A stretch of 64,000 bases of DNA, from positions 576,001-640,000 of the forward strand of contig CAVSCK010000003.1 in assembly GCA_963726455.1 (NCBI GenBank), read 5' to 3'. Shown one piece after another: positions 19,899 through 36,030 of this stretch (the first letter of the stretch is position 1; every line of letters starts with the position of its first letter). A program made the translations under genes and the position numbers. The DNA is from an uncultured bacterium. GTDB lineage: Bacteria; Zixibacteria; MSB-5A5; CAIYYT01. The notes beneath the pieces were generated by a model. The model ran no database searches, was not told where the DNA came from, and saw only the letters and a list, made by a program, of their open reading frames with translations.

Positions 19899-21424
19899 TC
19901 AGCTTCCCGAGCAGGGAGCAGAACCACTTCCAAAGATGTATGTGATCAGGAACACGACGTCGGAAATATCGACTGACCAGCTCGTATCACCATCACCAGC
20001 CAGCATCGGGTTTGGCGCCGGACCACCGGAAAAGATGTAAGAGATCAAATAGACCGCATCCGATATATCAACGCTGCCGCTGCCGTCGGCGTCACCGCAC
20101 GTCGCATGCCTGGGAATACTTGACTGTAACGAAACTCATATTGCTGCCGCCGTAACCGGTGACGATTACATTGTTCGCCTGATCCAACGCAATTCCTACC
20201 GCACAACTCGATGGTCCATTTGGTGCGAGGTGACGATTCGTCCAGATTTCGTTCCCGTCGGAATCGTACTTGAACGCCAGCATATCGCTGTCGCTTGAAC
20301 CCGCTACATAGACGCTGCCGGCTTCATCCAACACCATGTCCCTGACGGATTCTTGGGTGCTCCCCGACGAAACGTACTGGCGAGTCCAGACGGGAGTTCC
20401 GTCTGGATAGTATTTTAGGATGAAGATGTGCAAACCAACCGGATTTCCTGCGGACATCCCGAGACATAGATATTATCTGATGCATCGGTACTGCGATGTC
20501 GCGTACATTGTCACGTGACGATCCGCAGTCAAAGTCGCGTTCCCAGAGGAACTCACCTGAAGCGCCGAACTTCATGGTGAAGAAGTCATACGCAGTTGCC
20601 CCGTTATATGCATCCCCGGCCACCACAACATCTCCAGCGTTGTCCACACAGACTTTGTAGATATATATCAGCCGATCCTCATAGCGCGTCCAAGTGTTCA
20701 CGACGTCGCCCGCTGCATTGTACTCGATCACTACAATTGTCGTTCGACCGTCCGGAATGGACTCGTACCCAAAACGCCCTGCTACATACACATTGCCGGC
20801 GCCATCCATGGTAATTGCGTCGACATAGCCCGGCAGACTGTCAGGGGTCTGATAGAAACGCATCCAATCCGTATCTCCGTTCGGAAGATACTTGATGGTA
20901 ACGAACTCATATAAGGAGTTGGGACGCAAACTAAAGCCGGTGACATAGACATTGCTGGATGCATCAGCGGCTATTCCTGAAATTATATCATCGCCGTTGT
21001 CCGGATTGTTGTACGTTCGCACCCAGGCGGTGTCACCGTTCGGAAGGTACTTGACGACGACAAGATCACGTGCCGTTCCGACACCCCAGCCGGTTGCCCG
21101 TACATAGGAGTTGCCGAAATTGTCAGCGATCACCCCAAAACCGAACACTGTAATATCAATGGCGGTAAAGTTACCCAAATATGTTCTCGCCCAGGCCGTG
21201 TCACCGTTGGGCAGGTATTTGACTGTCGTCAATAGGCAGCCGTTGACTCCGTTGGGACTCCGGCCCACCATGAAGATATTGTCCTGATTATCTACCGCGA
21301 CCCCTGCCGGGTCGCTATAATGCGACCTATTGTACTCAGATATCCATAGCGGGACTGCCGATTGCACAATTACCGGCAGCATCAATACGAGGATACAACA
21401 AGCGAACATTACCCTTTTGGTCAT
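19899..21424 (-). CDS. Secreted SBBP-type beta-propeller protein with C-terminal dockerin; frameshifted near 20470 and 20100
   Basis: Repeats DxxGNVYVTG...TVKYLPNGDTAWxRTY; dockerin GDADGSGSVDISDAVYLISYIFSGGPAP...DISDVVFLITYIFGSGSAPC read manually; TGA at 19899. Confidence 0.8.
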
Positions 21425-21583
21425 GCGAACCTCCGAATCTTGATGAATGTACCGAGTCTTGGGAAATGTATACCAAAACACGTATGTATTGTCAAGCGTT
21501 TTTTTGAATCTCACGATCTGCACTCACATCATAACCTTGGCTCCGGTCGCTAATCTCACCTGCCGTCGAGACACGGCGACCGC

Positions 21584-21623
21584 TGGTGAATCCGTTGACA
21601 ATCTCACATAGCTCCCCTATCTT
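21584..21623 (+). promoter_or_regulatory. tdh promoter with overlapping Rex-like palindrome
   Basis: TTGACA(21595)-17 nt-TATCTT(21618); TGGTGAATCCGTTGACAA (21584-21601) overlaps the -35. Confidence 0.5.
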
Positions 21624-21648
21624 TGCGCATCGAAATTGACGGCTGCCG

Positions 21649-22722
21649 ATGGCCGATCAGAAAGGATTGCGACTGTGGATACGATGTGGGCTGGTGTCAA
21701 AGCAACGACGTGCCAAAGGCGCCGAATTCAAACAGGTTCCGATTCCGAAAATCACCGATAATCAGGTTCTGATCAAAGTGAAGGCCGCCTCGATCTGCGG
21801 CACCGATAAGCATATCTACAATTGGGACGCCTGGGCACAGGGACGGCTGCAATCCGCCGCTGATTTTCGGCCATGAATGTTGCGGCGAAGTTGTCGAGAT
21901 CGGCAAAGGAATCAAAGGCACTCAAAGTCGGCGACTTCATCGCCGCCGAGTCGCATATCCCCTGTGGCGTCTGCAAACAGTGCCGCATGGGCAATATGCA
22001 CATCTGCGACAATCTGGTGATTCTGGGGGTCGATACCGACGGCATTTTCGCCGAGTATGCTGCTCTGCCGGAAATCGTCTGCTGGAAGGTCGACAAGTCG
22101 CTTGATCCGGCCATCGCCTCGATCCATGAACCGTTCGGCAACGCGGTCTATGTCACCATGTCGGGGAATGTCTCGACCAAGAAGATCGCGATCATCGGTG
22201 ACGGCCCGACCGGCGCGTTTGCGTGCGGCATCGCCAAAGCCGTCGGAGCGGAGAAAATTTACACGCTCGGAATGATTCCGTTCAATCTCGATATCTGCCG
22301 CAAGATGGGCGCGCACGTCACGATCGATGTCACCAAAGACAAGGATTTCATCGAAGCGTGTCGTTGACGAAACCCATGGCGGCGTCGATGTCGTTCTCGA
22401 CATGGCCGGCAATCAGGCCGCCAACGACAGCGGCTTCAAGATGCTGCGCAAAGCGGGCACCTATGTCATGTTCGGTCTGCCATCACAGCCGGTGACACTT
22501 GATATCTCCAACTACATCATCTTCAAAGGCGCAACGGTCATTGGCATCAACGGCCGCAAGATGTTCGAGACCTGGTATCAGATGTCCGGCCTGCTCAACA
22601 GCGGTCTGGTCGATCCCTCACCGGTCATCACGCACCGTTTCCCCTTCCACGATTTCCTGAAGGCATTCGAACTCGCCACTTCAACGACCACGCCGTCGGC
22701 GAAGGTTGTGCTGGTGATGTAA
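21649..22722 (+). CDS. tdh: L-threonine 3-dehydrogenase, split by several frameshifts
   Basis: ICGTDKHIYNW, GHE, SHIPCGVCKQCRMGNMHIC, EPFGNAV, GINGRKMFETWYQM, VITHRF across three ORFs; exact start uncertain. Confidence 0.88.
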
Positions 22723-22913
22723 ATGCAGGAGCGCCTCGTTGCAAAGCACGAAGAGAGACATAATCGAACGGGCTGCGAGCGTGGATAAAAGCTCCGATTT
22801 GCTCAAGCAGACCTTTTCTCGCAGTCTCCTCCGATTTCCCGCCATTGCCACTTTCTTGGGAGATGCTTTCGAAGCTCGAATGAATAGATTCTGAATGGAT
22901 TGACAATCCAATT

Positions 22914-23837
22914 GTGCAATGCATCCTGTCACCTGACTTGGGAACGGCCGCTAACCTAGAATCTCTAATTGAGCACTCAAGTCCTGAGATTGTTAGCAGT
23001 ATCAAGCGGGAGATTAATGGTGCAGCTCCCGACTTCGACGAGAAGGTTTGGGATTACGTGACTGAAGTCGCCGCAACGATCTGGATGGCTCGTGAAGGCT
23101 ATAGCGGCACTGAGAAATTCAAACCCGTTGCAAGGAATGGCAAAGCTCCACAGAGTCCTGATTTCATTTCAAATCACAACGGGAAAAAGTGTCTGGTGGA
23201 GGCAAAACACCTGAGAGCCCCTTCCAGAGTAGAGGAGCTCTTATGGGTGCGACTTAATGCAAACTACCTGATCGCGCCTGACCTATATAGGCGTAAATTT
23301 GTCGTTCATATTAGCGATGGTGATTGCTTCGAAAATGAGTATTGCAGCACTGAGGACAGTGCAGCTTGCAGCCAGATATTTGCTCTCCTCGAAAAGGAAC
23401 TTGGAAACCAAGATTGTGGCTCAGTTCGACACCTATATGACAAAAGGTTTGATGGCGGGAAAATCCTGAACATCAGTGTCTGCATTGAATTCCGTAAGGG
23501 ACCAGATTTTGTTTGGTGTGTCAGCGCCTCCTCTCAGGTCACGACAAGCAACAAGTCACTCGAGGCGCAATCAAAGGCTGGATTTAAGGATAAGATCAGG
23601 AAAACAATAGAGAAGGGCTCATTGCAGTTGTTGTCAGCAGCGACTCCCGAGACTGGGGAGTTGGTAGTCTTCCTATGCTGGGACATACCCATGATGTACA
23701 AACAGCTTGATTGTGACTTTGAGAACGAAGTGAGTATGTACGTCAACTCAGAGTTGGCACCGGAGTATAGAGAGCAAGACGATAGGCTAAAGATCCATTT
23801 CACGGACTGGGGCAAAATACTTAACGACTTAGCTTGA
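22914..23837 (+). CDS. Hypothetical protein with a PD-(D/E)XK nuclease-like motif; true start may be near 22781 across a frameshift
   Basis: EVAA...SPDFISNHNGKKCLVEAKHL; looks more AT-rich than its flanks. Confidence 0.6.
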   Translation: MQCILSPDLGTAANLESLIEHSSPEIVSSIKREINGAAPDFDEKVWDYVTEVAATIWMAREGYSGTEKFKPVARNGKAPQSPDFISNHNGKKCLVEAKHLRAPSRVEELLWVRLNANYLIAPDLYRRKFVVHISDGDCFENEYCSTEDSAACSQIFALLEKELGNQDCGSVRHLYDKRFDGGKILNISVCIEFRKGPDFVWCVSASSQVTTSNKSLEAQSKAGFKDKIRKTIEKGSLQLLSAATPETGELVVFLCWDIPMMYKQLDCDFENEVSMYVNSELAPEYREQDDRLKIHFTDWGKILNDLA

Positions 23838-23855
23838 GGCAGCTCTTCTCCCTGC

Positions 23856-24230
23856 AACTCGGTACCCCATCCCAGCAGGTGGGAATTCCTAATACAACAG
23901 CCCCCATTCTCTCCGACATCCCCCGATGAGCGAAACGAAATTGCCTCCAGCGGGTTTTGTTAAGTCGAGAAAGCAGGAGTGATTTCTTACCCACTCGCTG
24001 TGGGGTACAAACTTACCGCCTATACACTTATGCGTAACTTTGTGAACTCAGTACCCCAGCCCAGCGGGTGGGAATTTCTGATGCATCGGCCCCCGTCCCC
24101 TGTTCATCCGGCGCGCGACAATGTAGTTGCACCGACTATAGTTTCGTAGGTTGGCGTTGCGAGTCCCATGACATTACTCGACACCCGACAACTCGCAGTC
24201 GGTTCACTGCCTCGAACTCGCAACGCGCTA
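23856..24230. repeat. Cluster of REP-like palindromic repeats
   Basis: Degenerate direct repeats AACTCrGTACCCCAkCCCAGCrGGTGGGAATT at 23856 and 24045; a shorter inverted copy at 23987-24008; inverted pair GCGTTGCGAGT/ACTCGCAACGC at about 24153 and 24216. Confidence 0.65.
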
Positions 24231-25886
24231 CTTCTTCTCCGCCGCCGCGGATTTCGACTCCTCGCGGTAAAACACCCCCATGCTTGCCGGTGCATTGTAG
24301 AGTTCCGGCTGAAGATACTTGCCCTGACGCGCTCCCGTCTTCATTTCTATTGCAGGTGCTTTGTACTTCTGGACATAGAGATCATTTCGAGTTCCTGTCA
24401 CTGTCCAGGAAACTTTCAACCCGCCGGAGCCACCACTGATCTTAAACTTGTGGCCACTAACTTCCTGTGCGATAAAAAGGTTGGGGGCTGATGCTCCGAC
24501 CGGAGTAAGCTGATACTGGAAGTCTTTCGTGATGGACTCAGCATAATCGGGAAGTGTAACCCATGCCTCACCACCTGCATCGAGAACAGCATTGCCGCGA
24601 TAGGTGTAAGTAGGTTCAGTCGATTCAACGCTGTAATTATTAATCATCTTGTTCAGGGGATCGAGCGGGTGATCCAACTGGTTGACTGCCAATCCAGAAC
24701 CACCAAATCTGCCGCCATAGTATACTCCGTAACCGTATGGACTGGGACAGTACCCAAGCACTCCGAAACCGCCCCCGACAGAATCTTCCGATAAACCTTC
24801 GAGAGCCCCAGCGTCTTGCGCAGAGACTCCGGCAAAAATTGCCATGCTGCTGCTATCACTTATCACAGTCAAAACACCAAAGAGAGGAAGCGGCTTCGTC
24901 CCGATCGCGACAGTTGTTGCGTGAATCGACAATCCGTAGTCACTGTCAAGCTCAATCCTCGCATCATAGTCCGATATGCTATCGTTCTTGAAATCGATAT
25001 AGGGCGCCCCGCCAACCATTTCCATGTAGGCGTTTGGATCACGACCGATGTGGACACCGTACGCAGTCGATGAACTTCCACCGACACTAACGTTCCCGTT
25101 TGCCGGCGCCATCGATATGCCACCGACATCAGTCGAGATGATGCCGTGAGTCCCATCATGCGATAGATCAAGAAAAGTCCCCCAGGAGTTCGTTGTTCGC
25201 CCATGAATGCGCAGTGATGCATCATAGTCCCTGACATTACTGAAGGTATTCATGAAAGAGAAGATGTGCCCCGTCGTAGCGTCGCCATCGAAGACGGCAA
25301 GGTAGTCACCGCTAAAGGAGATACGCGGTCGCTCAGCAGCCGCCGAACCATCTTTCAAGGTCAATCTCGGTCCGTTCCAATAGCTCACCGTTATCCCCCC
25401 GTTGACTTCGAGAGCACTGGTAGGCGTTGACGTACCGATACCAACATTGCCTCCGGTGTAGTAAATGCTACTACCTGATTGGGTCCAGTAGCCACTCGTA
25501 CCACCCGGGGCGTTGAGTGCGTAGGGCACGGAAGCCATAAGAATCCGCGGTGACATCTCGGGGCCGGAGCCGATTGTGATTCCGAGGTAGCGGGGAAATT
25601 CCTTGAACAGGGCTGGGTCAAAAGGATTTGCAGACCCAAGCAAGGCGGTAAACAATCCGTCTGAGGTAGTGACATTGTGTTCTTCCGTCCACAAGGCTGA
25701 ACCACCCGAAAGATCGGCATAGATTGCGAACGTCACGCTATATGTACCATTTGGCACCGGTTTGCCTGTCGCATCAGTAAGTCTGCCCTGATAGCTGATT
25801 GGTTGTGTCGGGGCCGCCTGCACCAAACCTGCGACCATGATCGAAAAACAAAACATGAGATACAGTCTGATCAATTTCGGATTCAT
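24228..25886 (-). CDS. Secreted fibre/adhesin-like protein (YQGRL N-domain; DHPLDP-type C-terminal domain)
   Basis: Signal peptide; ISYQGRLTD...PRILMASVPYAL; GNVGIGTSTP; DHPLDPLNK...VES. Confidence 0.75.
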   Translation of the reverse strand: MNPKLIRLYLMFCFSIMVAGLVQAAPTQPISYQGRLTDATGKPVPNGTYSVTFAIYADLSGGSALWTEEHNVTTSDGLFTALLGSANPFDPALFKEFPRYLGITIGSGPEMSPRILMASVPYALNAPGGTSGYWTQSGSSIYYTGGNVGIGTSTPTSALEVNGGITVSYWNGPRLTLKDGSAAAERPRISFSGDYLAVFDGDATTGHIFSFMNTFSNVRDYDASLRIHGRTTNSWGTFLDLSHDGTHGIISTDVGGISMAPANGNVSVGGSSSTAYGVHIGRDPNAYMEMVGGAPYIDFKNDSISDYDARIELDSDYGLSIHATTVAIGTKPLPLFGVLTVISDSSSMAIFAGVSAQDAGALEGLSEDSVGGGFGVLGYCPSPYGYGVYYGGRFGGSGLAVNQLDHPLDPLNKMINNYSVESTEPTYTYRGNAVLDAGGEAWVTLPDYAESITKDFQYQLTPVGASAPNLFIAQEVSGHKFKISGGSGGLKVSWTVTGTRNDLYVQKYKAPAIEMKTGARQGKYLQPELYNAPASMGVFYREESKSAAAEKK

Positions 25887-25917
25887 CGTTCCTCCGTCTC
25901 TGATACATTTGTCGCCA

Positions 25918-27690
25918 CTATTTACTGTCCGGCTTTGTCTGGTTCTGTTGTTTCTGCAACTCCTTCATCTTCGCCTCAGTCACCTGGCGCTCCAGCCTTT
26001 CCGCTTCCGCGCGCGCTTTGGCCGCCTTAAGCTCCAAGTCACGCAGATCAACCTGATACATATTCTCGTTCGTCGGCTTACCGAAGACATCGCTCGTCTC
26101 CACTTTGGTCGCTTGGTCAAAGCCCGCCGCCTCGCTGGAATTGGCCATCGCAATCACGCTACCGTACGAAGTCGGCAGATAGATCGCTGTCACTGCGGCG
26201 TCGGCGGGAGCCATATAGGCCACCCCGGTGACATATCGCGACCCTTCCATTCGGAATGTGTAAGTTCCCGCCGGTTTATAGAAAACGCGTTGCACGAAAA
26301 CGGAAAAAATCGTGCCCTGGTCGCCGCCTAATCCTACTATAGCAGTATATCCCGTTATCCGATCACCCCCGGCGGTTTCATCAATCTGAATGTAAGCTGT
26401 CTTGGTACCAGCCGGCCCACTAATGCTAACGTCGCAGCTTCCGATAACCAGTATGTAACCGCTTCCCGGCGTTGTGATCGTAGTGGTCACCAGGTCTTGC
26501 ATCGTTGCACTTGTTAATAAACTTGGCGAGGGGACTCGATTGGCCGAGATACCTGGTTCATCGAGAATTTCTCTACTGTCGATGGCGCAGTCAGGCAGAA
26601 TCACGGATGAATTCCCACTGGCTCCAGCGTCCATCCACACATTGAGCGCGTTGGTGCTGTCATTCAGCATCAGCGTACCGCCTCTGCCACCTCCGAATCC
26701 AACCGCCGACAGCAACGCCCCGCCGTAAGTGGACAAAGAGCTGTCGTACAGTACCAATAGACCAGCACCTTCCTCGCAAAGTCGAGCTCTTTCCACACCA
26801 TTAGATCCAAAGACCTGAATTTTCCTATTGTTCGGATCAACCATAACTCGGTCAGCGCCGCCGGATTGCCAGCGGCTATCGGCGGAGAAGACAACCGAAC
26901 CATTTGCCGGCGCCAACGTTATGTCCCCGACATCAGTCGACATGATACCGTGGGTCCCGTTATGCGTCAGATCAAGAGAGGTGCCCCAGGAGTTTGTTGT
27001 TCGCCCGTGAACGCGTAGTATTGCATCATAGTTTCTGACATTGCTGAAGGTGTTCATGAATGAAAAGACGTGCGCGGTTGAGGTGTCGCCATCAAAGATC
27101 GCCAGGAAATCGCCGCTAAAGGAGATACGCGGTCGCTCCTGCCCAACGTGGTTATCTTTCAGAGTCAATCTCGGCCCGTCAACTTTGCTTATAGTTGCGC
27201 TGCCATTGACCTCCAACACGTCGCCGGGAGTTGACGTGCCGATTCCGACATTACCACCATTGTAGTAAATACTGCTGCCGGACTGCAGCCAATACCCAGT
27301 CGTACCACTCGTGGCATTTAACGCATAAGGCACGGAACCCATAAGAATTCTTGGCGTCATTTCCGGGCCGGCACCAATCGTGATTCCGAGATAACGAGGG
27401 TACACTGAGAACAAACTCGGGTCAAACGGAGTCATCGATCCGAGCATCGCCGTAAACAATCCGCTCGAAGTGGTGACCGTATGACTTTCCGTCCACAAGG
27501 CTGAACCACCCTCAGAATCGGCGTAGATTGCGAATGTTACGCCGTAGTTGCCGTTGGCAACCGGATTGCCCAAACTGTTTGTAAGGCGGCCCTGGTAGCT
27601 GATCGGTGGAATTGACGCGGCCAGAATCGCCGTCGCCCAAAACGCAAACAGCGCGCAGATAACGATAATGCGATACCTGAATGATGACAT
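25918..27690 (-). CDS. Secreted fibre/adhesin-like protein (YQGRL N-domain; C-terminal coiled coil)
   Basis: GGAGG then MSSFRYR; N-terminal ~240 aa closely similar to 24228..25886; ends RDLELKAAKARAEAERLERQ. Confidence 0.75.
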   Translation of the reverse strand: MSSFRYRIIVICALFAFWATAILAASIPPISYQGRLTNSLGNPVANGNYGVTFAIYADSEGGSALWTESHTVTTSSGLFTAMLGSMTPFDPSLFSVYPRYLGITIGAGPEMTPRILMGSVPYALNATSGTTGYWLQSGSSIYYNGGNVGIGTSTPGDVLEVNGSATISKVDGPRLTLKDNHVGQERPRISFSGDFLAIFDGDTSTAHVFSFMNTFSNVRNYDAILRVHGRTTNSWGTSLDLTHNGTHGIMSTDVGDITLAPANGSVVFSADSRWQSGGADRVMVDPNNRKIQVFGSNGVERARLCEEGAGLLVLYDSSLSTYGGALLSAVGFGGGRGGTLMLNDSTNALNVWMDAGASGNSSVILPDCAIDSREILDEPGISANRVPSPSLLTSATMQDLVTTTITTPGSGYILVIGSCDVSISGPAGTKTAYIQIDETAGGDRITGYTAIVGLGGDQGTIFSVFVQRVFYKPAGTYTFRMEGSRYVTGVAYMAPADAAVTAIYLPTSYGSVIAMANSSEAAGFDQATKVETSDVFGKPTNENMYQVDLRDLELKAAKARAEAERLERQVTEAKMKELQKQQNQTKPDSK

Positions 27691-28080
27691 AACGCCTCCG
27701 GTGTATGAAAAGAGCAGAATTATTATCAGAAGCAGGTCGGTCGCCGATTTGAGGACAAGACCCCTATCTTTAATATCGGCAATATGAGCAAATAAGGCAA
27801 ACGTTATTCTGATTGTCGCTGCCTCCCTGTACATGGTTTCGCAGGTCAGCGCTCCCAACCATAGCGCAATTGAAAACCGACTTATTCCCTCCCGCTTCAC
27901 CAAATCAACGACTCGTCTCTCTGCTATTGCCTTGACTTTCTCGCGTCTAAAATTATATTGGACTTGTCTATCTAGGTATTGTTGCCAAAAAAGGTCGTGG
28001 AGTTTGAACTGCCGTTCATGTCCCCGCCCGGGGCGCCACAATCTGCCGAAAGATCATCCGCAGATCAAAGGAGTAACCAT

Positions 28081-30057
28081 ATGAAACTCACACTATCACT
28101 CTGTCTGGCCCTGTCGATTCTCATGCTGACTTGGGCATCACTGACGTTCGGCGCGGTGCCGCAGTCAATCAACTATCAGGGCCGGCTCACCAACGCCGTC
28201 GGCGCTCCGGTGAATGACACAGTTAGTCTGGTGTTTACGATCTGTAGCGACTCCCTATGTGCCAAGACTCTCTGGACTGAAACGCAGAACGACATCATAA
28301 TAACCGACGGGATTTTTGCGGTCCGGCTCGGATCGATCAACCCGATCACACCGGACGCATTCGGGGGCGGGACGCGCTGGCTTTCAATTTCGCTGCATGG
28401 ACAGACTGTTAACCGACGTCTGCCGCTGGTGAGCGTTCCCTATGCCTATCAATCTGTAACGGCCGACACGGCTGATTACGCCAGGAACGCCGGTGCATCC
28501 GACTGCGCCGGGTGCAATGAAATCTTCGTGAATACCATCGGTCCCGACAGTGTCTACGCTTCTTCCGGGACCGCTTTTCTCGCGAAAACGGAAGCTAGCG
28601 CCGGCGATTACGCGTACGGTGTTAGAGGTATCGCATCCAACAGCTCCGGTGGCACGGCTTTCGGAGGCGCCTTCTCATCTCTCAATATTGGCACCGGCGT
28701 TCATTATGGTGTCTACGGCGAGGCACTCGGCGTCGCCGCCGGTCAAGCGTATGGTGTTTCCGGTGTAGCCACAAATTCGTCATCGGGTGAGACTTATGGC
28801 GGCCGCTTCTGGACCCTCGCCGGCGGCACAGGTTCCCATACCGGTGTTCGGTCCGAGGCCTTCGCTGCCTCCGCCGCTCCAACTTGGGGCGTCAGTTCCT
28901 GGGCTCGCAACACATCATCGGGTCTGACTTACGGTGGCCGTTTCGAAGTCGACGCCGCCGGCTCCGGCGCCCATTACGGAGTCTATTCGACTTCTGCCGG
29001 TTCGACCGATGTTACAACTTACGGTATCTACGGCAGCGCCGAGAATTCCTCTACCGGCGACGCCTACTCAGGATATTTCCTCACCTCCATTAATGGGACG
29101 GGCAGACACTTCGGTGTTGACGCAAATGCCTATTGCAACTCCGAATCTGAAGCTTACGGCGTGAACGGAATGGCCCAAAACAATTCCACCGGCGACGCCT
29201 ATGGCGGATACTTCTCGACCACGGCTTATGGAACTGGTCTTCATTATGGGGTTAAAGGCATCGGGCGCACTGGAGCGTCACCGGAAGTCTACGGGGTTGT
29301 TGGTGAGGGATCGAATACCTCCAGCGGCGCCGCTTTCGGAGGCATCTTCGCTACCGATACACTCGGCACTGGTCACCACACCGGCATCTATGCCCGGGCT
29401 GACGGCTCCTCCGAATCTACTATGTCCGGCGTGGTTGGCATCGCCATGAATTCGTCCACCGGCATTTCCTACGGTGGTCGCTTCTTGACATTTGGTGACA
29501 GTCCCGGCCAGAAGATTGGTGTCTACGCATCTTGTCCGACTGCTTCCGAGCCGGGAATCAATTTCGCCGGATTCTTTGACGGGCCCGTGATCGTCATGAA
29601 TAATTTTCAGGTAATGGGCACCAAGAGCGCCGTGGTTGGCGTTGGCAATCAAGAATACCGCTCCGTCTATTGCCAGGAATCGCCCGAAAACTGGTTTGAG
29701 GATTTTGGTGAGGGACGGCTAGTCAACGGTCGCGCTCATATCGACCTCGATCCGGTGTACTTGCAGACAGTCACCATCGACGCCAATCATCCCATGAAAG
29801 TTTTCGTGCAGCTCGAGGGCGACTGCCGTGGCGTGTATGTATCGAAAAGTACGACCGGCTTCGACGTGAACGAACTTCAGGGCGGCACCAGCGGCGTTGC
29901 ATTTTCCTACCGCGTTGTAGCGAAGCGAAAGGGTTATGAGGATCTTCGACTGGCAACAACGAAAGTCATTTCGCCCGATGTGAGACAGGCCATGCAAAAC
30001 CAGGGCCTTACTAACGTACCTAAGGCGATTTCCGAAAGACCCTCGCAAGACGAGTGA
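28081..30057 (+). CDS. Secreted fibre-like protein with 45-aa beta repeats and phage-tail-type ESPENWFEDFG C-terminal domain
   Basis: AAGGAG RBS; INYQGRLTN; seven Gly-rich 45-aa repeats; TKSAVV...YCQESPENWFEDFGEG...FSYRVVAKRKGY. Confidence 0.78.
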   Translation: MKLTLSLCLALSILMLTWASLTFGAVPQSINYQGRLTNAVGAPVNDTVSLVFTICSDSLCAKTLWTETQNDIIITDGIFAVRLGSINPITPDAFGGGTRWLSISLHGQTVNRRLPLVSVPYAYQSVTADTADYARNAGASDCAGCNEIFVNTIGPDSVYASSGTAFLAKTEASAGDYAYGVRGIASNSSGGTAFGGAFSSLNIGTGVHYGVYGEALGVAAGQAYGVSGVATNSSSGETYGGRFWTLAGGTGSHTGVRSEAFAASAAPTWGVSSWARNTSSGLTYGGRFEVDAAGSGAHYGVYSTSAGSTDVTTYGIYGSAENSSTGDAYSGYFLTSINGTGRHFGVDANAYCNSESEAYGVNGMAQNNSTGDAYGGYFSTTAYGTGLHYGVKGIGRTGASPEVYGVVGEGSNTSSGAAFGGIFATDTLGTGHHTGIYARADGSSESTMSGVVGIAMNSSTGISYGGRFLTFGDSPGQKIGVYASCPTASEPGINFAGFFDGPVIVMNNFQVMGTKSAVVGVGNQEYRSVYCQESPENWFEDFGEGRLVNGRAHIDLDPVYLQTVTIDANHPMKVFVQLEGDCRGVYVSKSTTGFDVNELQGGTSGVAFSYRVVAKRKGYEDLRLATTKVISPDVRQAMQNQGLTNVPKAISERPSQDE

Positions 30058-30112
30058 AGGCATCCAGCCGCCTATAGTCGTTGAGATGAAGCGTGCAATT
30101 ACTGGGTATCTG

Positions 30113-30137
30113 GTCTCCCATCCCAGCGGCTGGGAGT
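30113..30137 (+). repeat. Further copy of the 23.9-kb REP-like repeat
   Basis: GTCTCCCATCCCAGCGGCTGGGAGT versus GTACCCCATCCCAGCAGGTGGGAAT. Confidence 0.5.
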
Positions 30138-30225
30138 ATTCCACACATCTGGCCCACTAACTCACAACCACTCACCTGCTTCTGACGTACCATATCCAAA
30201 ACTCGGAACCCGGAAAGGATTTTCC

Positions 30226-30735
30226 ATGCCGAACATAACCGCTCCATTTATCATCGAACTCGATCACGAAGCCGCAACAACCCGCAGACTCCTCGAACGA
30301 GTGCCATTAGACAAATTCGACTGGCAACCGCATCCGACCTCGCGGAAACTGGGAATTCTGGCCGCACATGTCGCCGAGACATCGGGCTTCTTCGCGGACG
30401 TGCTGGCTAATGACGATTTCGATATGGCCAATCTGAAATACACTCCCCCTGAAGCACACAGCACTCCCGAACTGCTGTCACAATTTGATCAGAGCATGAA
30501 GGCATCCAACAAGTTTCTCTCCGATTTGAGCGACGAGCGGGCAATGACCGTCTGGAGCTTTCGCATGAGCGGTAAAGTGCTGTTCGCAGCTCCGCGAATC
30601 GCGCTGGTGCGGTCATTGATGTTCAGTCACTGGATCCATCACCGCGGCCAATTGTCCGTGTATTTGCGCATGCTCGGTGTGCCGATTCCTTCGATATACG
30701 GCCCCAGTGGCGACGAAAATCCGTTTGCAGCGTAA
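30226..30735 (+). CDS. DinB family protein
   Basis: TTRRLLERVP, LAAHVAE, HWIHHRGQLSVYLRMLGVPIPSIYGPS. Confidence 0.92.
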   Translation: MPNITAPFIIELDHEAATTRRLLERVPLDKFDWQPHPTSRKLGILAAHVAETSGFFADVLANDDFDMANLKYTPPEAHSTPELLSQFDQSMKASNKFLSDLSDERAMTVWSFRMSGKVLFAAPRIALVRSLMFSHWIHHRGQLSVYLRMLGVPIPSIYGPSGDENPFAA

Positions 30736-30786
30736 CCGCCGGACTTGACCCTGCCCCAGGCATATGTGACCAGTCTTCCCGCTACT

Positions 30787-30850
30787 TCGTGAACTTTTTC
30801 ACAAAATCTTCGGCGCTACCCTTGCCGCCGGAAGGCGCAGATGCTATATT
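30787..30850 (+). promoter_or_regulatory. Promoter of the acs-acp-kbl operon with an upstream Rex/CRP-like palindrome
   Basis: TCGTGAACTTTTTCACAA (30787-30804); TTGCCG(30822)-17 nt-TATATT(30845) with extended -10 TG. Confidence 0.6.
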
Positions 30851-30916
30851 GGCGCGAATTCCCGGCCAGGAAAAATGCCGGGAAGTGGCGTGGCTATTTC
30901 GCGAGGAGGAATCTAC

Positions 30917-32620
30917 GTGACCAACATCGGCAGCTATGAAGATAAACTGACCAGCTTCAACTGGAGCATCGCGGAGAAGGAACTGGAATACCGCGACGGT
31001 AATTTGCTGAACATCGGCGAATACTGCACCGACCGCGTTTGTCGGATGGGTAAGAAAGACAAACTGGCGCTGATCTGGGAGAACCATTCCGGTGAAGAGC
31101 GTAAGTACACATTCAATGACATGCGTCTGCGCACCAACACGATTGCGGCTTTCCTGCAAAAGCTGGGTCTGAAGCCGGGCGACCGGATTTGCCTGTTTAT
31201 GGACAAAGTACCGGAGCTCTACTTCGGATTCCTCGGCATACTCAAGATGGGTGGAATCGCGCAACCATTGTACTCGGCGTTCGGCTCGGAGTCGCTGTTG
31301 ACCAGATTGGTGGATGCCCAAACCTCGGCAATCTTCACCCAGCGTAAACATCTCGCCAAGGTTCGCAACATCCTGGGCGAACTGCCATCGCTACAACACG
31401 TGATTGTCGTTGATGATGACGGCTCGCGCCCATTGAAAGAACGCGAACTCGCGTTTCACATGGATCAGGCGGAACTGATCGAGCATTTCGACGTTTTCCC
31501 CGCCAAAGCCGAGACGCCGTCAGTACTGCACTACACGTCTGGAACCACGGGCAAACCCAAAGGCGCTCAGCACGTGCATTACTCGCTGATTTCGCAATAC
31601 ATCACGACCAAGTATGTTCTCGATCTCAAGGATGATGACATCTACTGGTGTACTGCCGACCCGGGCTGGGTGACCGGCACGTCATACGGCATCATCGGGC
31701 CATGGGTGACCGGCACCACCCAGTGCGTGCTCGATGCCGGATTCGAGGCCAACGCCTGGTATGCATTCATCGAGAAATACAAAGTCACAGTCTGGTACTC
31801 GGCGCCGACGGCGATTCGTTCGCTGATGAAAGAAGGCGAGGAACCGGTCAAGAGACACAATCTGACATCGCTGCGCCATCTGGCATCAGTCGGTGAACCA
31901 CTCAATGCCGAGGCGGTGATTTGGTCGGAGAAAGTCTTCGGCCTGCCATTTCTGGATACCTACTGGCAGACTGAAACCGGCAGCATCATGATATCGAATT
32001 ACCCCGGCATGAGAATCAAACCCGGCTCGATGGGCAAACCGTTTCCGGGAATCACGGCGACTGTCGTTGACCTGAAAACTTTCGAGCCAATTACCCGCAA
32101 GGGTATTGTCGGACTGATCGCGATCAAACCGGGCTGGCCGTCGATGTTTCGCACCTACTGGAACAACATCGAGACCTACCGCTCGAAGTTCAAGAATGGC
32201 TGGTACATTTCCGGCGATCGCGCCTCATTGGACGAGGAAGGATATTTCTGGTTTGTCGGACGCGACGACGATGTTATCAATACTGCCGGCCATCTAGTAG
32301 GGCCATTCGAGATCGAATCGGCACTGCTGGAACACCCGGCCGTCGCTGAGTCGGCGGTGGTCGGAAAACCCGATCCGGTCAATATGGAAGTGGTCAAGGC
32401 GTTTGTCGCGCTTAAGCCCGGATTCGAGGCATCAAGAGACCTCGACCTTGACATCATGAATTTCGTGCGCAAGAAACTGTCGCCGCTGGCTATGCCGCAG
32501 GAAATCGAATTCGTCAAGTCACTTCCCAAGACACGCAGCGGCAAAATCATGCGTCGGGTGCTCCGCGCCAAGGAATGGGGCGAGGAAATCGGCGATACGT
32601 CAACATTGGAAAATGATTAG
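30917..32620 (+). CDS. acsA: AMP-forming acetate--CoA/carrier-protein ligase (AcsA-like)
   Basis: GGAGG plus GTG start; YTSGTTGKPKG, WCTADPGWVTGTSYG, DTYWQTETG, LPKTRSGKIMRR. Confidence 0.9.
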   Translation: MTNIGSYEDKLTSFNWSIAEKELEYRDGNLLNIGEYCTDRVCRMGKKDKLALIWENHSGEERKYTFNDMRLRTNTIAAFLQKLGLKPGDRICLFMDKVPELYFGFLGILKMGGIAQPLYSAFGSESLLTRLVDAQTSAIFTQRKHLAKVRNILGELPSLQHVIVVDDDGSRPLKERELAFHMDQAELIEHFDVFPAKAETPSVLHYTSGTTGKPKGAQHVHYSLISQYITTKYVLDLKDDDIYWCTADPGWVTGTSYGIIGPWVTGTTQCVLDAGFEANAWYAFIEKYKVTVWYSAPTAIRSLMKEGEEPVKRHNLTSLRHLASVGEPLNAEAVIWSEKVFGLPFLDTYWQTETGSIMISNYPGMRIKPGSMGKPFPGITATVVDLKTFEPITRKGIVGLIAIKPGWPSMFRTYWNNIETYRSKFKNGWYISGDRASLDEEGYFWFVGRDDDVINTAGHLVGPFEIESALLEHPAVAESAVVGKPDPVNMEVVKAFVALKPGFEASRDLDLDIMNFVRKKLSPLAMPQEIEFVKSLPKTRSGKIMRRVLRAKEWGEEIGDTSTLEND

Positions 32621-32713
32621 TCTGTAATTTCGTGTGATTCCCGTCGCATTGGGAATTGCTTTCGCTGTTCGGATTTCTTACACTCCGGCAGGTAAAATGA
32701 CAAGGAGACAAGC

Positions 32714-32965
32714 ATGGCAGATCTGAGAGATGTGATTCTTACTTACGTCAAGAACGAATATGTCGAGGAAGGCGATGATCTGGAGATCACTTACACCACG
32801 CCACTGATTTCGGGCGGGATCGTTGACTCGTTTTCGATGGTGTCACTCAAGCGCTTCCTCGAAAACAAATACAATATCCAGATACCGGATGCCAAGGCCA
32901 CGCCGAAGGCATTTGACTCGATAAACAACATTATCCAACTGTTGAAGGAATTCAACATTCAGTAG
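32714..32965 (+). CDS. Acyl carrier protein
   Basis: 83 aa, acidic N-half; GIVDSFSMV phosphopantetheinylation motif; ...LENKYNIQIPD...FDSI. Confidence 0.88.
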   Translation: MADLRDVILTYVKNEYVEEGDDLEITYTTPLISGGIVDSFSMVSLKRFLENKYNIQIPDAKATPKAFDSINNIIQLLKEFNIQ

Positions 32966-32973
32966 GATCAACT

Positions 32974-34221
32974 ATGTCATTTCAAGAGACCGTTCGGGAT
33001 ATCTATAAACAGGAACTCAACACGCTGCGTTCGGGCGGCATCTTCAAGGAAGAGCGCATCATCTGTGCGCCGCAGGGCTCCGAAATCGAAGTCGAGTTCC
33101 CAATAGGGGCTGCCAAGAAGAAGGTCATCAACATGTGTGCCAATAATTACCTCGGGTTGTCGTCTCATCCCGATGTAATTGCCGCCGCGCGTGAAGGGCT
33201 CGATCGTCGCGGCTACGGCATGTCATCGGTGAGATTCATTTGCGGCACCCAGGACATCCACAAACAACTTGAGCAGAAACTCACCGAGTTTCTCGGCACT
33301 GAGGACACGATTCTATTTCCGTCCTGCATGGATGCCAACGCCGGTGTGTTCGAGGCCGTACTGACCGATCAGGACGTTATGATCGCTGACCGACTGGTGC
33401 ATGCCTCCATCGTTGACGGCATGCGTCTCTGCAAAGCTCAACAGGATACCTTCAAGCACTCCGATATGGGACACCTCGAGGAGAAACTGCAACTTCATCA
33501 AAGTGCCCGGCTACGACTAGTCATCACTGACGGATCGTTCTCGATGGACGGTGATCTGGCACGGCTGGATAAGATCGTGGAGTTGGCGGAAAAGTACAAT
33601 TCAATGGTGTTTGTCGATGACTCTCATGCCAGCGGCTTTATCGGCAAGACCGGTCGTGGCACGCACGAACACTTTGGCGTCGTCGGTAAGATCGATATTA
33701 TCACGACCACGCTGGGCAAGGCGCTGGGCGGTGCTTCGGGCGGCTGCGTATCAGGCCGTCGCGAATTGGTGGAAATGTGCCGCCAAAAAGCCAGACCTTA
33801 TTTGTTTTCCAACACAATTCCGCCCGTTGTTGTTTCCGGTGCGCTACGAGTTTTGGAAATCATCAGCGCTACCACGGAACGCCGCGACAAACTCGAACGC
33901 AATACCGAGTTTTGGCGCAAGGGTCTGACTGAAGCCGGCTTCATTATCAAAGAAGGCGAGACGCCGATCGTGCCGGTGATGTTGTTCAATGCCAAGTTGT
34001 CTCAGGACGTCGCGAAGGATTTGTACGACGAAGGCATCTACGCCGTCGGTTTCTTCTTCCCGGTCGTTCCCAAAGGACAAGCGCGAATCCGCACGCAGCT
34101 CTCCGCAGCACACGAGATGCATCATCTGGAAAAAGCGCTGGCGGCATTCATCAAAGTCGGCAAGAAATACGGCATCTTGCACAAGTCGAAACAGGAAATC
34201 ATCGACACCTTTGGAATGTGA
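32974..34221 (+). CDS. kbl: 2-amino-3-ketobutyrate CoA ligase (glycine C-acetyltransferase)
   Basis: CANNYLGLSSHP, SSVRFICGTQDIH, DDSHASG, TLGKALGG (PLP Lys), RQKARPYLFSN, PVVPKGQARIRTQLSAAH. Confidence 0.92.
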   Translation: MSFQETVRDIYKQELNTLRSGGIFKEERIICAPQGSEIEVEFPIGAAKKKVINMCANNYLGLSSHPDVIAAAREGLDRRGYGMSSVRFICGTQDIHKQLEQKLTEFLGTEDTILFPSCMDANAGVFEAVLTDQDVMIADRLVHASIVDGMRLCKAQQDTFKHSDMGHLEEKLQLHQSARLRLVITDGSFSMDGDLARLDKIVELAEKYNSMVFVDDSHASGFIGKTGRGTHEHFGVVGKIDIITTTLGKALGGASGGCVSGRRELVEMCRQKARPYLFSNTIPPVVVSGALRVLEIISATTERRDKLERNTEFWRKGLTEAGFIIKEGETPIVPVMLFNAKLSQDVAKDLYDEGIYAVGFFFPVVPKGQARIRTQLSAAHEMHHLEKALAAFIKVGKKYGILHKSKQEIIDTFGM

Positions 34222-34249
34222 TCCTCAGTACACGGTCGGCAAGTGATTG

Positions 34250-34282
34250 AGGGGCGACTTATTTCGTCGCCCCTTTGATTTT
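34250..34282 (+). terminator. Terminator of the acs-acp-kbl operon, overlapping the convergent stop codon
   Basis: AGGGGCGAC-loop-GTCGCCCCT-TTGATTTT. Confidence 0.65.
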
Positions 34283-35143
34283 GTCCGATGATTCCTCCGA
34301 AGCAAGGTCCACTTGCGTCTTTCCTTTGACAAACCGTGACAGCAACGCTACGATCAAGAGGATTCCGATCAGCGAGGCGATGATCATTGGGCCGGTCGGC
34401 CTGTCGAAAGTGACCGACAGCACTAAACCTATAAGTGCTGCCGGCATGGCCAGCGCCCAGCCAAGCACGAGCCGCCAGAATTTGGACCGCGTTACCAGCA
34501 ACGCACTCACCGGTGGTATCACAAGTAACGAAAACACCAGCAAGACTCCGGCGACGTGCACGGACGATGTTACCACCATGCCGAAGCTGGCGTAGAAGAG
34601 GAAATCCCACAACAGCACTTTGGTTCCTTGCGCAATTGCGCGCGATCGGTCTTCGGAAATCATAAAGAACTGGCGGCGGAACAGGTAATGAAACAGACCG
34701 ATTCCCGAATAGAGCAATGCGATGACAACTAACTCGCGGGGTGAGCAAGTCAACAGCGACCCGGCCAGCATGTGCTCCAATTCCTCCATGCCCTGTGGCA
34801 ACCCGGCGAGCAAGATTACAGCCAGCGCAGAGAATCCTGCGTAGACAATTCCGATGAAGGCCTCCTGGGGGACGCGATTATCCCTGGTTCGCGAGAGCGA
34901 AATGATCAACGCCGCAAGCAACGTAAACGCAAGCGAGACGAAATACTCACTTCCCGTGTGGGGTTGGATCCCCAGTATGATCGCCACCACTGATCCAAAT
35001 GCGGCAGCCTGTGCCAGCGACAGATCAACGAAAATCACACCCCGGCTCACGACATGAAATCCGAGATAGGCGTGAATGCCTGCCAGGATCAGTCCAGCGA
35101 CTGCCGCCAATAAGACAAATGGCTCAAGAAACGTGTGCATCAT
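34259..35143 (-). CDS. Metal ABC-3 type permease (ZnuB/MntB-like)
   Basis: Multi-TM; HVVSRGVIFVDLSLAQ, GVLLVFSLLVIPP, DRPTGPMII; ATGA overlap with the SBP stop. Confidence 0.85.
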   Translation of the reverse strand: MMHTFLEPFVLLAAVAGLILAGIHAYLGFHVVSRGVIFVDLSLAQAAAFGSVVAIILGIQPHTGSEYFVSLAFTLLAALIISLSRTRDNRVPQEAFIGIVYAGFSALAVILLAGLPQGMEELEHMLAGSLLTCSPRELVVIALLYSGIGLFHYLFRRQFFMISEDRSRAIAQGTKVLLWDFLFYASFGMVVTSSVHVAGVLLVFSLLVIPPVSALLVTRSKFWRLVLGWALAMPAALIGLVLSVTFDRPTGPMIIASLIGILLIVALLSRFVKGKTQVDLASEESSDKIKGATK

Positions 35144-36030
35144 GGGGTCGCCTGGCCTTCGCTGAGGGTCTTGAGAATTACATCGAACAGAGCAAAGTAG
35201 TCTGTCGCCTCGGGTACTCCGCCGACGGATGGAGGAAGTATCACGACCTTCGCCCCCGTTTCGCGCGCGATCGTGTTGGGTGCACGGTCGGAAAAATAGG
35301 GTTCGCGACAAATGAGCTTGATATTTCGCTTCTTGACGAGATCGATGATATCAGCCGTATGTGACGGCGACGGTTCGATACCCGGCTTCGGTTCAACAAA
35401 GCCGTCGACCTTGATCCCAAAAGCATCGGCAAAGTAGGGCCAGCTCTCATGATAAGTTATGATTTCGAGACCCTGCAATGTGGCGGCTGCCGTCTTCCAC
35501 GCGGCCAGTTTTTCGGCCAGCTTCTTTCCAAATACCTCGCGATTCTTGCGATAGGTGTCCGCATTCTGAGGATCGACAGTCACCAGGCCGTCGAGAATAT
35601 TGTCGGCAATGATCAGGCCGTTGGAGGGATTGAGCCAGTAATGCGGGTTGCCCTGGGGATGAACATCACCCATAGACGCATTAACAGTCTGAGTCGGTCT
35701 TTCCAAGACATCGATGTTCTTGGAACAGTCGACGACGACCAATTTGCCGTTGCGCGATCCGTCAATAATCGGCGCGGCCCAGCTATCTAGTTCCAATCCC
35801 ACTTTCAAATACAAATCTGCTCTGCTGACTTTGAGCATATAACTGGGCAATACTTCGACAGAGTGGGGATTTGCCGTGCCGCGATTGAGAGATTCCACCT
35901 TCACCAAATCGTCGCCGATCATTTCCGCAATAGAAGCAAGATCGGAAGTGGAAGTCACGATCATGATCTTTCCTAAAGCGGATGCCGCGCAGCAAAGCAC
36001 CAGGGTCAGCAACAGTATTACGTTCTTCAT
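35140..36030 (-). CDS. Metal (Zn/Mn) ABC substrate-binding protein (ZnuA-like)
   Basis: NPHSVE, DVHPQGNPHYWL, YHESWPYF, EPKPGIEPSPSH. Confidence 0.9.
   Translation of the reverse strand: MKNVILLLTLVLCCAASALGKIMIVTSTSDLASIAEMIGDDLVKVESLNRGTANPHSVEVLPSYMLKVSRADLYLKVGLELDSWAAPIIDGSRNGKLVVVDCSKNIDVLERPTQTVNASMGDVHPQGNPHYWLNPSNGLIIADNILDGLVTVDPQNADTYRKNREVFGKKLAEKLAAWKTAAATLQGLEIITYHESWPYFADAFGIKVDGFVEPKPGIEPSPSHTADIIDLVKKRNIKLICREPYFSDRAPNTIARETGAKVVILPPSVGGVPEATDYFALFDVILKTLSEGQATP

Follow-up and report, generated by a model that had tools for sequence, protein, structure and literature searches.

A conserved ligase, carrier protein and Kbl-type synthase as a candidate carrier-protein-dependent variant of the Tdh-Kbl pathway

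In the canonical Tdh-Kbl pathway, represented by kbl-tdh of Escherichia coli, threonine is converted to glycine and acetyl-CoA, and Kbl is taught as a CoA enzyme. Here we describe a locus in a stretch of 64,000 nucleotides (the window; positions 576,001 to 640,000 of contig CAVSCK010000003.1) from an uncultured bacterium of the Zixibacteria, which encodes an AMP-forming ligase, a small acyl carrier protein (ACP) as well as a Kbl-family alpha-oxoamine synthase that we call KblA. This set of three genes, the triad, resembles the canonical pathway in the Kbl family of its synthase, in the catalytic residues and in having Tdh as an operon partner in related genomes. Beyond the canonical enzymes it includes a ligase that activates acetate, an ACP of its own and, in many cases, AcpS. 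The synthase is also unlike that of E. coli, since KblA has a clade signature of its own and a C-terminal extension and is often encoded beside a canonical Kbl, here KblB. The thiol proposed to carry the acetyl group would be that of a carrier protein, not CoA.

A comparable three-part design is found in AasR-AcpR-SPT (SPT, serine palmitoyltransferase), which serves sphingolipid synthesis in Rhodobacteria. According to the portions of PMC9386255 consulted, its ligase loads only its own ACP, its synthase prefers acyl-ACP, and the genes co-occur. The triad shares the three-part design and the co-occurrence of its genes (63, 63 and 62 of 151 genomes of one phylum). Unlike AasR-AcpR-SPT, which handles a long acyl chain and serine, the module has an acetate-sized pocket, a Kbl-type synthase, Tdh as its partner and no lipid genes nearby. 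A long-chain or sphingolipid reading of the triad was rejected on account of the acetate pocket, together with a synthase that scores above the cut-off on the Kbl profile and below the cut-offs on the SPT profiles.

The acetate-[ACP] ligases CitC (citrate lyase) and MadH (malonate decarboxylase) use acetate and ATP to acetylate a protein-bound thiol, as is proposed for the module. Their fold is unrelated to that of the triad ligase, and their carriers bear a group derived from dephospho-CoA and act as lyase cofactors. To our knowledge, lyase cofactors and the priming of chain synthesis are the only settings in which a dedicated carrier protein is known to bear an acetyl group. The triad ligase is like the AcsA-type acetyl-CoA synthetase (Acs) of structure 9g79, with which it has in common a short form without the long CoA-binding loop as well as the acetate pocket and the catalytic lysine; unlike 9g79, it has leucine at the position equivalent to R526 and is always paired with an ACP and KblA. 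A precedent for the reverse reaction, in which thioester, AMP and PPi yield acetate and ATP, is SaAcs1 of Syntrophus aciditrophicus, which the consulted parts of PMC4992975 and PMC13404658 describe as an AMP-forming Acs working towards ATP. As far as those parts go, SaAcs1 uses acetyl-CoA and no carrier protein, and its bias has been attributed to displacement of the CoA-binding loop, a loop that in the triad ligases is simply short.

The three proteins are everywhere annotated as acetate--CoA ligase, acyl carrier protein and glycine C-acetyltransferase, and profile libraries give the same ordinary names. No description of a ligase-ACP-Kbl set was found in the full-text literature, with subscription journals and supplements outside the search. 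We rate the module as the Tdh-Kbl pathway combined with the AasR-AcpR-SPT design scaled down to acetate, and as so far undescribed.

The pathway proposed here comprises an acyl acceptor, a KblA substrate and a direction of flux, all three of which we infer. The AcsA-type ligase would adenylate acetate and pass the acetyl group to the phosphopantetheine thiol of the private ACP, and not to CoA. KblA would then condense acetyl-S-ACP with glycine to 2-amino-3-ketobutyrate, which threonine dehydrogenase would reduce to L-threonine. Full acetylation of a private pool at the expense of ATP would drive the condensation, an unfavourable reaction with CoA thioesters, and an adjacent canonical, CoA-dependent KblB would serve the opposite, catabolic direction. 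We consider the core of this proposal, namely that ligase, ACP and KblA constitute a carrier-protein-dependent variant of Tdh-Kbl with the acetyl group on a private ACP, to be probable (roughly 0.8). The whole statement, which adds to this core the formation of threonine from acetate and glycine, is put forward tentatively, at somewhat less than even odds.

Conservation of the ligase, ACP and KblA genes

The ligase, the ACP and KblA form one conserved functional unit, beyond chance, because they co-occur in an all-or-none manner and because their order and spacing are kept. One genome per species was scanned for relatives of the ACP, which are encoded on at least 405 stretches, and 80 loci were retained for analysis of the neighbourhood. 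The record labels of the ACP-bearing stretches include Zixibacteria, Ignavibacteria, Aminicenantes, other Acidobacteriota, Calditrichaceae, Chrysiogenales, KSB1, Bacteroidales, Gemmatimonadales and Clostridia. Of the 80 loci, 69 have a triad-type ligase upstream in the same orientation and 79 have a KblA-type gene downstream of the ACP; all three genes are found together in 68, with median gaps of 63 and 17 nt, and the acs-acp-kbl synteny expected by the original prediction is well conserved. Three of the 11 loci without a ligase have less than 1 kb of upstream sequence, and for all five of the others that were checked genome-wide a triad-type ligase is encoded elsewhere in the genome (76-80% identity).

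Co-occurrence was followed in the phylum to which the window belongs, in an even sample of 151 genomes, all of one class and 150 of them with a completeness of 90% or more. Of these genomes, 63 encode the ACP, and the same 63 encode a KblA-type protein, defined by a cut of at least 67% identity that was chosen after the data had been seen. The triad ligase is found in 62 of the 63 genomes with ACP and KblA and in none of the other 88. The choice of cut matters, and here the evidence runs the other way: at 64% identity, four genomes without the ACP (G138, G142, G144 and G173) would join the KblA set, and in the first three of them the Kbl gene abuts tdh like the canonical pair. The identity of Kbl in G138, G142 and G144 is that of the second copies which adjoin KblA in G102, G104 and G195. 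The tdh-paired Kbl of family f10 of the same phylum (e.g., G102:C67:34615-35829 and G138:C2:1536-2762) is unusually close to KblA, at 64-66% identity, and aligns with it as far as the C-terminal end of KblA, and these alignments suggest a more recent duplication or conversion between KblA and KblB in that family.

Some loci depart from the usual arrangement. In genome G071, rated 100% complete, a Zn-type tdh is followed 540 nt on by the ACP and then by KblA (G071:C42:6453-9559), and no triad-type ligase was found at E <= 1e-150. In three loci, from Aminicenantes, Chrysiogenales and Ignavibacteria (L021:2830-4361, L051:2585-4035 and L034:3685-4470), genes of toxin-antitoxin-like type (AbiEii, SocA/Panacea) and one for a HAD hydrolase stand between or beside the ligase and the ACP.

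Properties of the three proteins

On NF003313 (acetate--CoA ligase, AcsA type), where the cut-off is 729 bits, the ligase reaches 769, and its nearest solved structure, the 572-aa Acs of 9g79, is matched over the full length at 571 bits. When residues are numbered as in E. coli Acs, V310, T311 and W414 of the acetate pocket and the catalytic K609 are present in the window ligase and in 53 of 53 relatives; V386, also of the pocket, is kept in the window ligase and in 51 of the 53. Judged by these residues the triad ligase is acetate-sized, which agrees with the small substrate assigned to it from the start, and its acyl acceptor, ACP rather than CoA, is what we infer.

In Acs, according to the consulted part of PMC10455477, R191, R526 and R584 serve the CoA step, R584 by contacting the 3'-phosphate of CoA. 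Of these three, R584 is retained by 53 of 53 triad ligases and R526 gives way to leucine in all 53; R191 is lost, the residue there being P, A, G or F. Arginine is found at position 526 in 9g79, 8rpk, the Salmonella enzyme of PDB 2p2f, E. coli Acs and also the genome's own Acs, a separate canonical protein of 654 aa that is encoded elsewhere and scores 960 bits on TIGR02188. The residue at 526 varies among other adenylating enzymes, however, and for this reason Leu-526 was rejected as proof of ACP use and is better taken as a mark of the clade. A second AMP-forming ligase stands in tandem before the triad ligase in the locus of G034 (L058:2430-4154), and apparently likewise in L059. The tandem ligase of L058 is 62% identical to the window ligase and has leucine both at the W414 position and at 526, which hints that a larger short-chain acid might also be loaded.

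The ACP gives weak matches to NCBIfam carrier-protein models, the best being NF052616 at 53.8 bits. It does not reach the Pfam PP-binding family (PF00550) at E 0.001, and PF00550 is found in 18-54% of the members of the Atlas clusters nearest to it. A search with the ACP returned at least 8000 matches, the best 120 of which are 73-90% identical. In 49 aligned sequences, nearly every residue from 31 to 45, around Ser39, is invariant, and the Asp-Ser attachment motif at the start of helix 2 (D38-S39) is invariant throughout. At least 10 of the 80 loci, and 7 of 9 further ones, have acpS immediately before the ligase, which argues that the ACP is used as a phosphopantetheine carrier and supports the view that it is dedicated to this set; the genome under study has one gene for an AcpS-type transferase. 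The match to NF052616 gave a lead to an ornithine-lipid ACP, which was dropped since the OlsH paper, in the part consulted, excludes a need for ACP: OlsH requires neither ACP nor CoA (PMC12493201).

KblA scores above the cut-offs of two Kbl profiles (581 bits against 493 on TIGR01822, 572 against 460 on NF005394) and about 460 bits against the solved Kbl structures 7bxp and 1fc4, while SPT profiles give 236-314 bits against cut-offs of 500-670. The window protein is 53% identical to E. coli Kbl (about 52% for the KblA group). The pyridoxal phosphate lysine K249 and the catalytic residues H143, D215, H218 and R373 are invariant in 56 sequences and align with E. coli Kbl. Proteins of the KblA group have 415 aa and are 66-91% identical to the window protein. 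Those of the KblB group have 397-470 aa, show 50-57% identity with the window protein and 57-62% with E. coli Kbl, and score higher than KblA on the Kbl profile (605-626 bits). Comparison of 61 KblA with 34 KblB-type sequences, in E. coli Kbl numbering, gave a clade signature that includes H325T, L298R, L264C, D334N, F309W, Y108F, S109P, N57S and A168H. KblA has, in addition, a 17-aa C-terminal extension with conserved lysines, and has gained conserved basic residues.

Both synthases are encoded in 35 of 51 triad genomes (a set of 50 and the window's own), mostly 1-23 kb apart; in the window's genome KblA was found and KblB was not. KblA is more conserved than KblB in all 465 genome pairs compared, with median identities of 80% and 69%. 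Because KblA and KblB distances correlate (r = 0.78), the high identity of KblA reflects constraint, not recent transfer. A predicted complex of the KblA dimer with the ACP scored 0.09 against a mark of 0.32 and is used as evidence neither way. Further oxoamine synthases occur in two places. In a zixibacterial locus (L061:7576-9000), KblA is followed by a third, distant oxoamine-synthase-like gene, whose 474-aa product is 35% identical to KblA. Outside the window, the genome under study (G000:C4:1523273-1525555; L106 1195-3477) encodes a second alpha-oxoamine synthase of 397 aa, divergently from a 338-aa reductase of the short-chain dehydrogenase/reductase (SDR) family. This synthase scores best on the CFB-type serine palmitoyltransferase profile (561 bits, cut-off 640), and the two genes may be a pair for a sphingoid or sulfonolipid base.

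The profile scores would also fit a simpler view, in which an ordinary acetyl-CoA synthetase and an ordinary CoA-dependent Kbl flank a small carrier gene that serves something else: both enzymes exceed the curated cut-offs of CoA-dependent families, and the equivalent of R584, which contacts the CoA 3'-phosphate (PMC10455477, part consulted), is kept in all 53 triad ligases compared. We regard such an arrangement as very improbable, given that the three genes co-occur even when unlinked, that genomes have separate canonical Acs and KblB genes, that acpS is found in the operon, that the core of the ACP is invariant, and that both the ligase and KblA have clade-specific changes.

Threonine dehydrogenase and the direction of flux

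Threonine dehydrogenase is regularly the fourth member of the module, for which two unrelated, non-homologous forms have been recruited. In the phylum sample, Zn-type Tdh is encoded in 36 of the 63 triad genomes against 10 of the 88 others, and in 16 genomes Zn-type tdh lies no more than 1.2 kb from the ligase, in the order tdh-ligase-acp-kblA. In the first set of 50 triad genomes, Zn-type Tdh was found at 318 bits or more in 26. Ten regions were fetched from triad genomes without this type, nine of which held the triad, and in seven of these nine loci an SDR protein (317-364 aa) and then AcpS (124-156 aa) precede the ligase. The SDR protein is a Tdh of a second type, matching the solved L-threonine 3-dehydrogenase PDB 7ol1 at 420 bits, and was found at 49-67% identity in 15 of 15 genomes tested, out of the 24 in the set of 50 that lack the Zn type. 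A Tdh of either type is present in at least 41 of the 50. That two unrelated dehydrogenases of the same activity occupy the same spot is strong evidence that 2-amino-3-ketobutyrate and threonine belong to the pathway. In locus L061, the SDR-type tdh that precedes the ligase is broken up into several frames.

The genome under study is an exception. The original prediction placed Tdh at 21.6 kb of the window, and this needs correction: the gene there is split over three reading frames, and on TIGR00692 the fragments score 63, 149 and 113 bits. Comparison with its intact counterpart in the nearest relative, G001 (86% nucleotide identity), shows four 1-nt insertions, near 21706, 21853, 21919 and 22354. 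SDR-type Tdh was not found in this genome either, where tblastn gave only sugar-nucleotide enzymes at 24-33% identity. None of the nine Epimerase-family matches listed as SDR-type candidates is Tdh-like: two lie inside the window (a GDP-mannose dehydratase and a sugar epimerase/dehydratase-like gene), six others were examined, and the last, in a 769-aa ORF (L108), was left unscanned. The assembly is not rich in frameshifts, with 80 open frames of at least 1000 codons and 90% of the genome in frames of at least 150 codons, and the triad genes themselves have no frame-breaking gaps against relatives. Public reads did not bear on the insertions, three runs holding only 0.04-0.06 of the sampled words. 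The tdh gene may be either a real pseudogene or the site of a local assembly fault. Because it is interrupted, the pathway is probably incomplete in this genome, with the last step missing, and the module may here be idle or stop at aminoketobutyrate or aminoacetone. The membership of Tdh in the pathway, as originally predicted, is upheld in relatives, in two forms and within the operon, but not in the genome for which it was proposed.

An intact triad beside a broken tdh, with no SDR-type Tdh, is a point against the proposed pathway, and could mean that the product does not depend on Tdh at all (2-amino-3-ketobutyrate, aminoacetone or a derived amine, pyrazine or signal), or that the triad is here an idle remnant which recently lost tdh. 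The intact triad with its promoter-like site and terminator, the four insertions in tdh and the lack of KblB would suit this explanation, and the tandem ligase of L058 and L059, with leucine at the W414 position, hints at other short acids. It is improbable nonetheless: one or other Tdh usually lies within the operon in the triad genomes that encode it, tdh is intact in the same genus and family (in G058 and in 8 of 9 genomes of genus g2), and an identity of 75-90% across phyla fits core metabolism better than a signal synthase.

As to direction, we favour acetate and glycine to threonine over threonine to acetate and ATP, while holding the former at less than even odds and the latter to be unlikely. 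Carrier loading is the usual direction of AMP-forming ligases. The gene for a SatP/YaaH acetate channel follows kblA in L069, with homologs in 5 loci, an arrangement that recalls acetate uptake with acs-actP of E. coli. The retention of KblB beside KblA suggests that the two have different jobs. The sole characterised triad of ligase, ACP and oxoamine synthase, AasR-AcpR-SPT, condenses, and its ligase refuses CoA, as far as the consulted text of PMC9386255 describes it.

If the same module ran in reverse, it would conserve energy from threonine breakdown: Tdh would oxidise threonine, KblA would split 2-amino-3-ketobutyrate with holo-ACP into glycine and acetyl-ACP, and the ligase, working backwards, would convert acetyl-ACP, AMP and PPi to acetate, ATP and holo-ACP, with a high ratio of acetylated to free carrier driving the formation of ATP. 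Tdh and Kbl are known to act together in catabolism, and the clusters that contain the triad also include KblB and Tdh. Genes for the ADP-forming acetyl-CoA synthetase (Acd) and for RidA, each nearby in 4 loci, likewise suggest catabolism. The hosts lack many amino-acid pathways and are probably fed by peptides, and a broken tdh beside an intact triad would be harmless if the triad merely consumed the product of Tdh. An AMP-forming Acs working towards ATP is also on record in Syntrophus aciditrophicus (PMC4992975 and PMC13404658, in the parts consulted). Yet KblB with Acd or Pta-Ack would already give ATP, which leaves the need for a ligase, an ACP and AcpS unexplained, and the known ligase-to-carrier systems, as described in the consulted part of PMC9386255, load carriers for synthesis. 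The SatP gene, recalling acetate uptake, does not fit reverse flux either, which also predicts the negative association with homoserine dehydrogenase less directly.

This association concerns the aspartate pathway, which the threonine-forming module had been predicted to bypass and with which it was expected to be anti-correlated. In the genome under study, rated 100% complete, neither thrC nor thrB was found above the cut-offs and homoserine dehydrogenase (hom) was not found at all. In the phylum sample, 4 of 63 triad genomes encode homoserine dehydrogenase, compared with 27 of the 88 others (Fisher p = 2e-4, uncorrected for kinship, with related genomes not independent). Within family f2 no genome has both, the triad being found in 15 and hom in 16. 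These counts must be set against several others. Among the 50 triad genomes, thrC is above the cut-off in 24 (about 29 when matches at or near the cut-off are included) and hom is present in 17: the one or the other coexists with the triad in 17 to about 29 of the 50. In the 51 triad genomes, ilvC is above the cut-off in 11 (12 at E <= 1e-30) and hisD is present in 5 (6 of the 151 phylum genomes), and 61 of the 88 triad-less genomes also miss homoserine dehydrogenase. Because the hosts miss many amino-acid pathways, they are broadly auxotrophic and the loss of hom, thrB and thrC has no specific tie to threonine; the hom pattern would be explained equally well by a life of peptide scavenging. 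The anti-correlation is seen in the raw counts, but the absence of hom, thrB and thrC suits such a life no less than a bypass. The only ilvC match found in the genome under study lies outside the window and is partial (G000:C3:689770-690345; 163 bits over profile positions 112-302); it falls in an open frame of 203 aa and may be another decayed amino-acid gene.

Features of the locus and significance

The coordinates of the triad, its presumed signals and tdh are listed in the table. The probable start of the ligase gene is GTG 30917, not 30875, because a GGAGG lies 7 nt 5' of this codon and because the N-termini of relatives align from it; the promoter candidate lies 67 nt upstream.

Table. 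Features of the window that bear on the triad, with positions counted from the first nucleotide of the window.
Feature	Position	Strand	Remarks
AcsA-type AMP-forming ligase, proposed acetate-[carrier protein] ligase	30917..32620	+	NF003313 match; longest ORF from 30875
Dedicated 83-aa carrier protein (ACP)	32714..32965	+	Ser39 within invariant LISGGIVDSFSMVSL
KblA, Kbl-family alpha-oxoamine synthase of a distinct, slowly evolving clade	32974..34221	+	TIGR01822 match
Sigma-70-like promoter candidate	30822..30850	+	TTGCCG, 17 nt, TATATT, TG extension; consensus scan only, 9/12 matches
Intrinsic terminator-like hairpin and T run	34249..34275	+	10-bp stem, 7 G-C pairs, 7-nt loop
Zn-type L-threonine 3-dehydrogenase gene, interrupted, probable pseudogene	21684..22722	+	three TIGR00692 fragments

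The three genes share one orientation and are bracketed by the promoter-like site and a strong terminator, the start codon of kbl being placed 8 nt past the stop of the ACP gene. This arrangement, the motifs DTYWQTETG in the ligase and GIVDSFSMV in the ACP, and the lack of fatty acid (fab), polyketide synthase or nonribosomal peptide synthetase genes, none of which was found among ORFs of at least 150 aa from about 20 to 46 kb of the window, had all been noted in the original prediction and are confirmed. An Rfam scan of positions 20000-36000 of the window and of ten related loci gave no riboswitch or leader. The neighbours of the locus are genes for adhesin-like proteins, a DinB-family gene, a metal ABC transporter and sugar-nucleotide genes. 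Three large ORFs of 552, 707 and 692 aa (positions 24228-30057) have weak N-terminal matches to the fibre domain of the Bdellovibrio 'mosaic adhesive trimer' at 33-38 bits, under the cut-off of 60.

Taken to its widest extent, the proposal is that many anaerobes, including Zixibacteria-like lineages, Ignavibacteria, Aminicenantes, Calditrichia, some Bacteroidales and others, would make threonine in three steps from glycine and acetate, in place of the aspartate route after the loss of hom, thrB and thrC. They would use a ligase that loads acetate onto a private ACP, the ACP itself, a Kbl that depends on it, and Tdh, as an ATP-driven reversal of Tdh-Kbl. As a joint claim this is possible, though we consider it doubtful.

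The triad behaves as a unit in at least 405 species-level genomes and in 63 of the 151 sampled genomes of one phylum. If it runs backwards, it would represent a new form of energy conservation, from a thioester through a private carrier pool. If it runs forwards, it would be a new short route to an essential amino acid and a compact pathway for engineering threonine from C2 units and glycine, and predictions of auxotrophy would change for many uncultured sediment bacteria.

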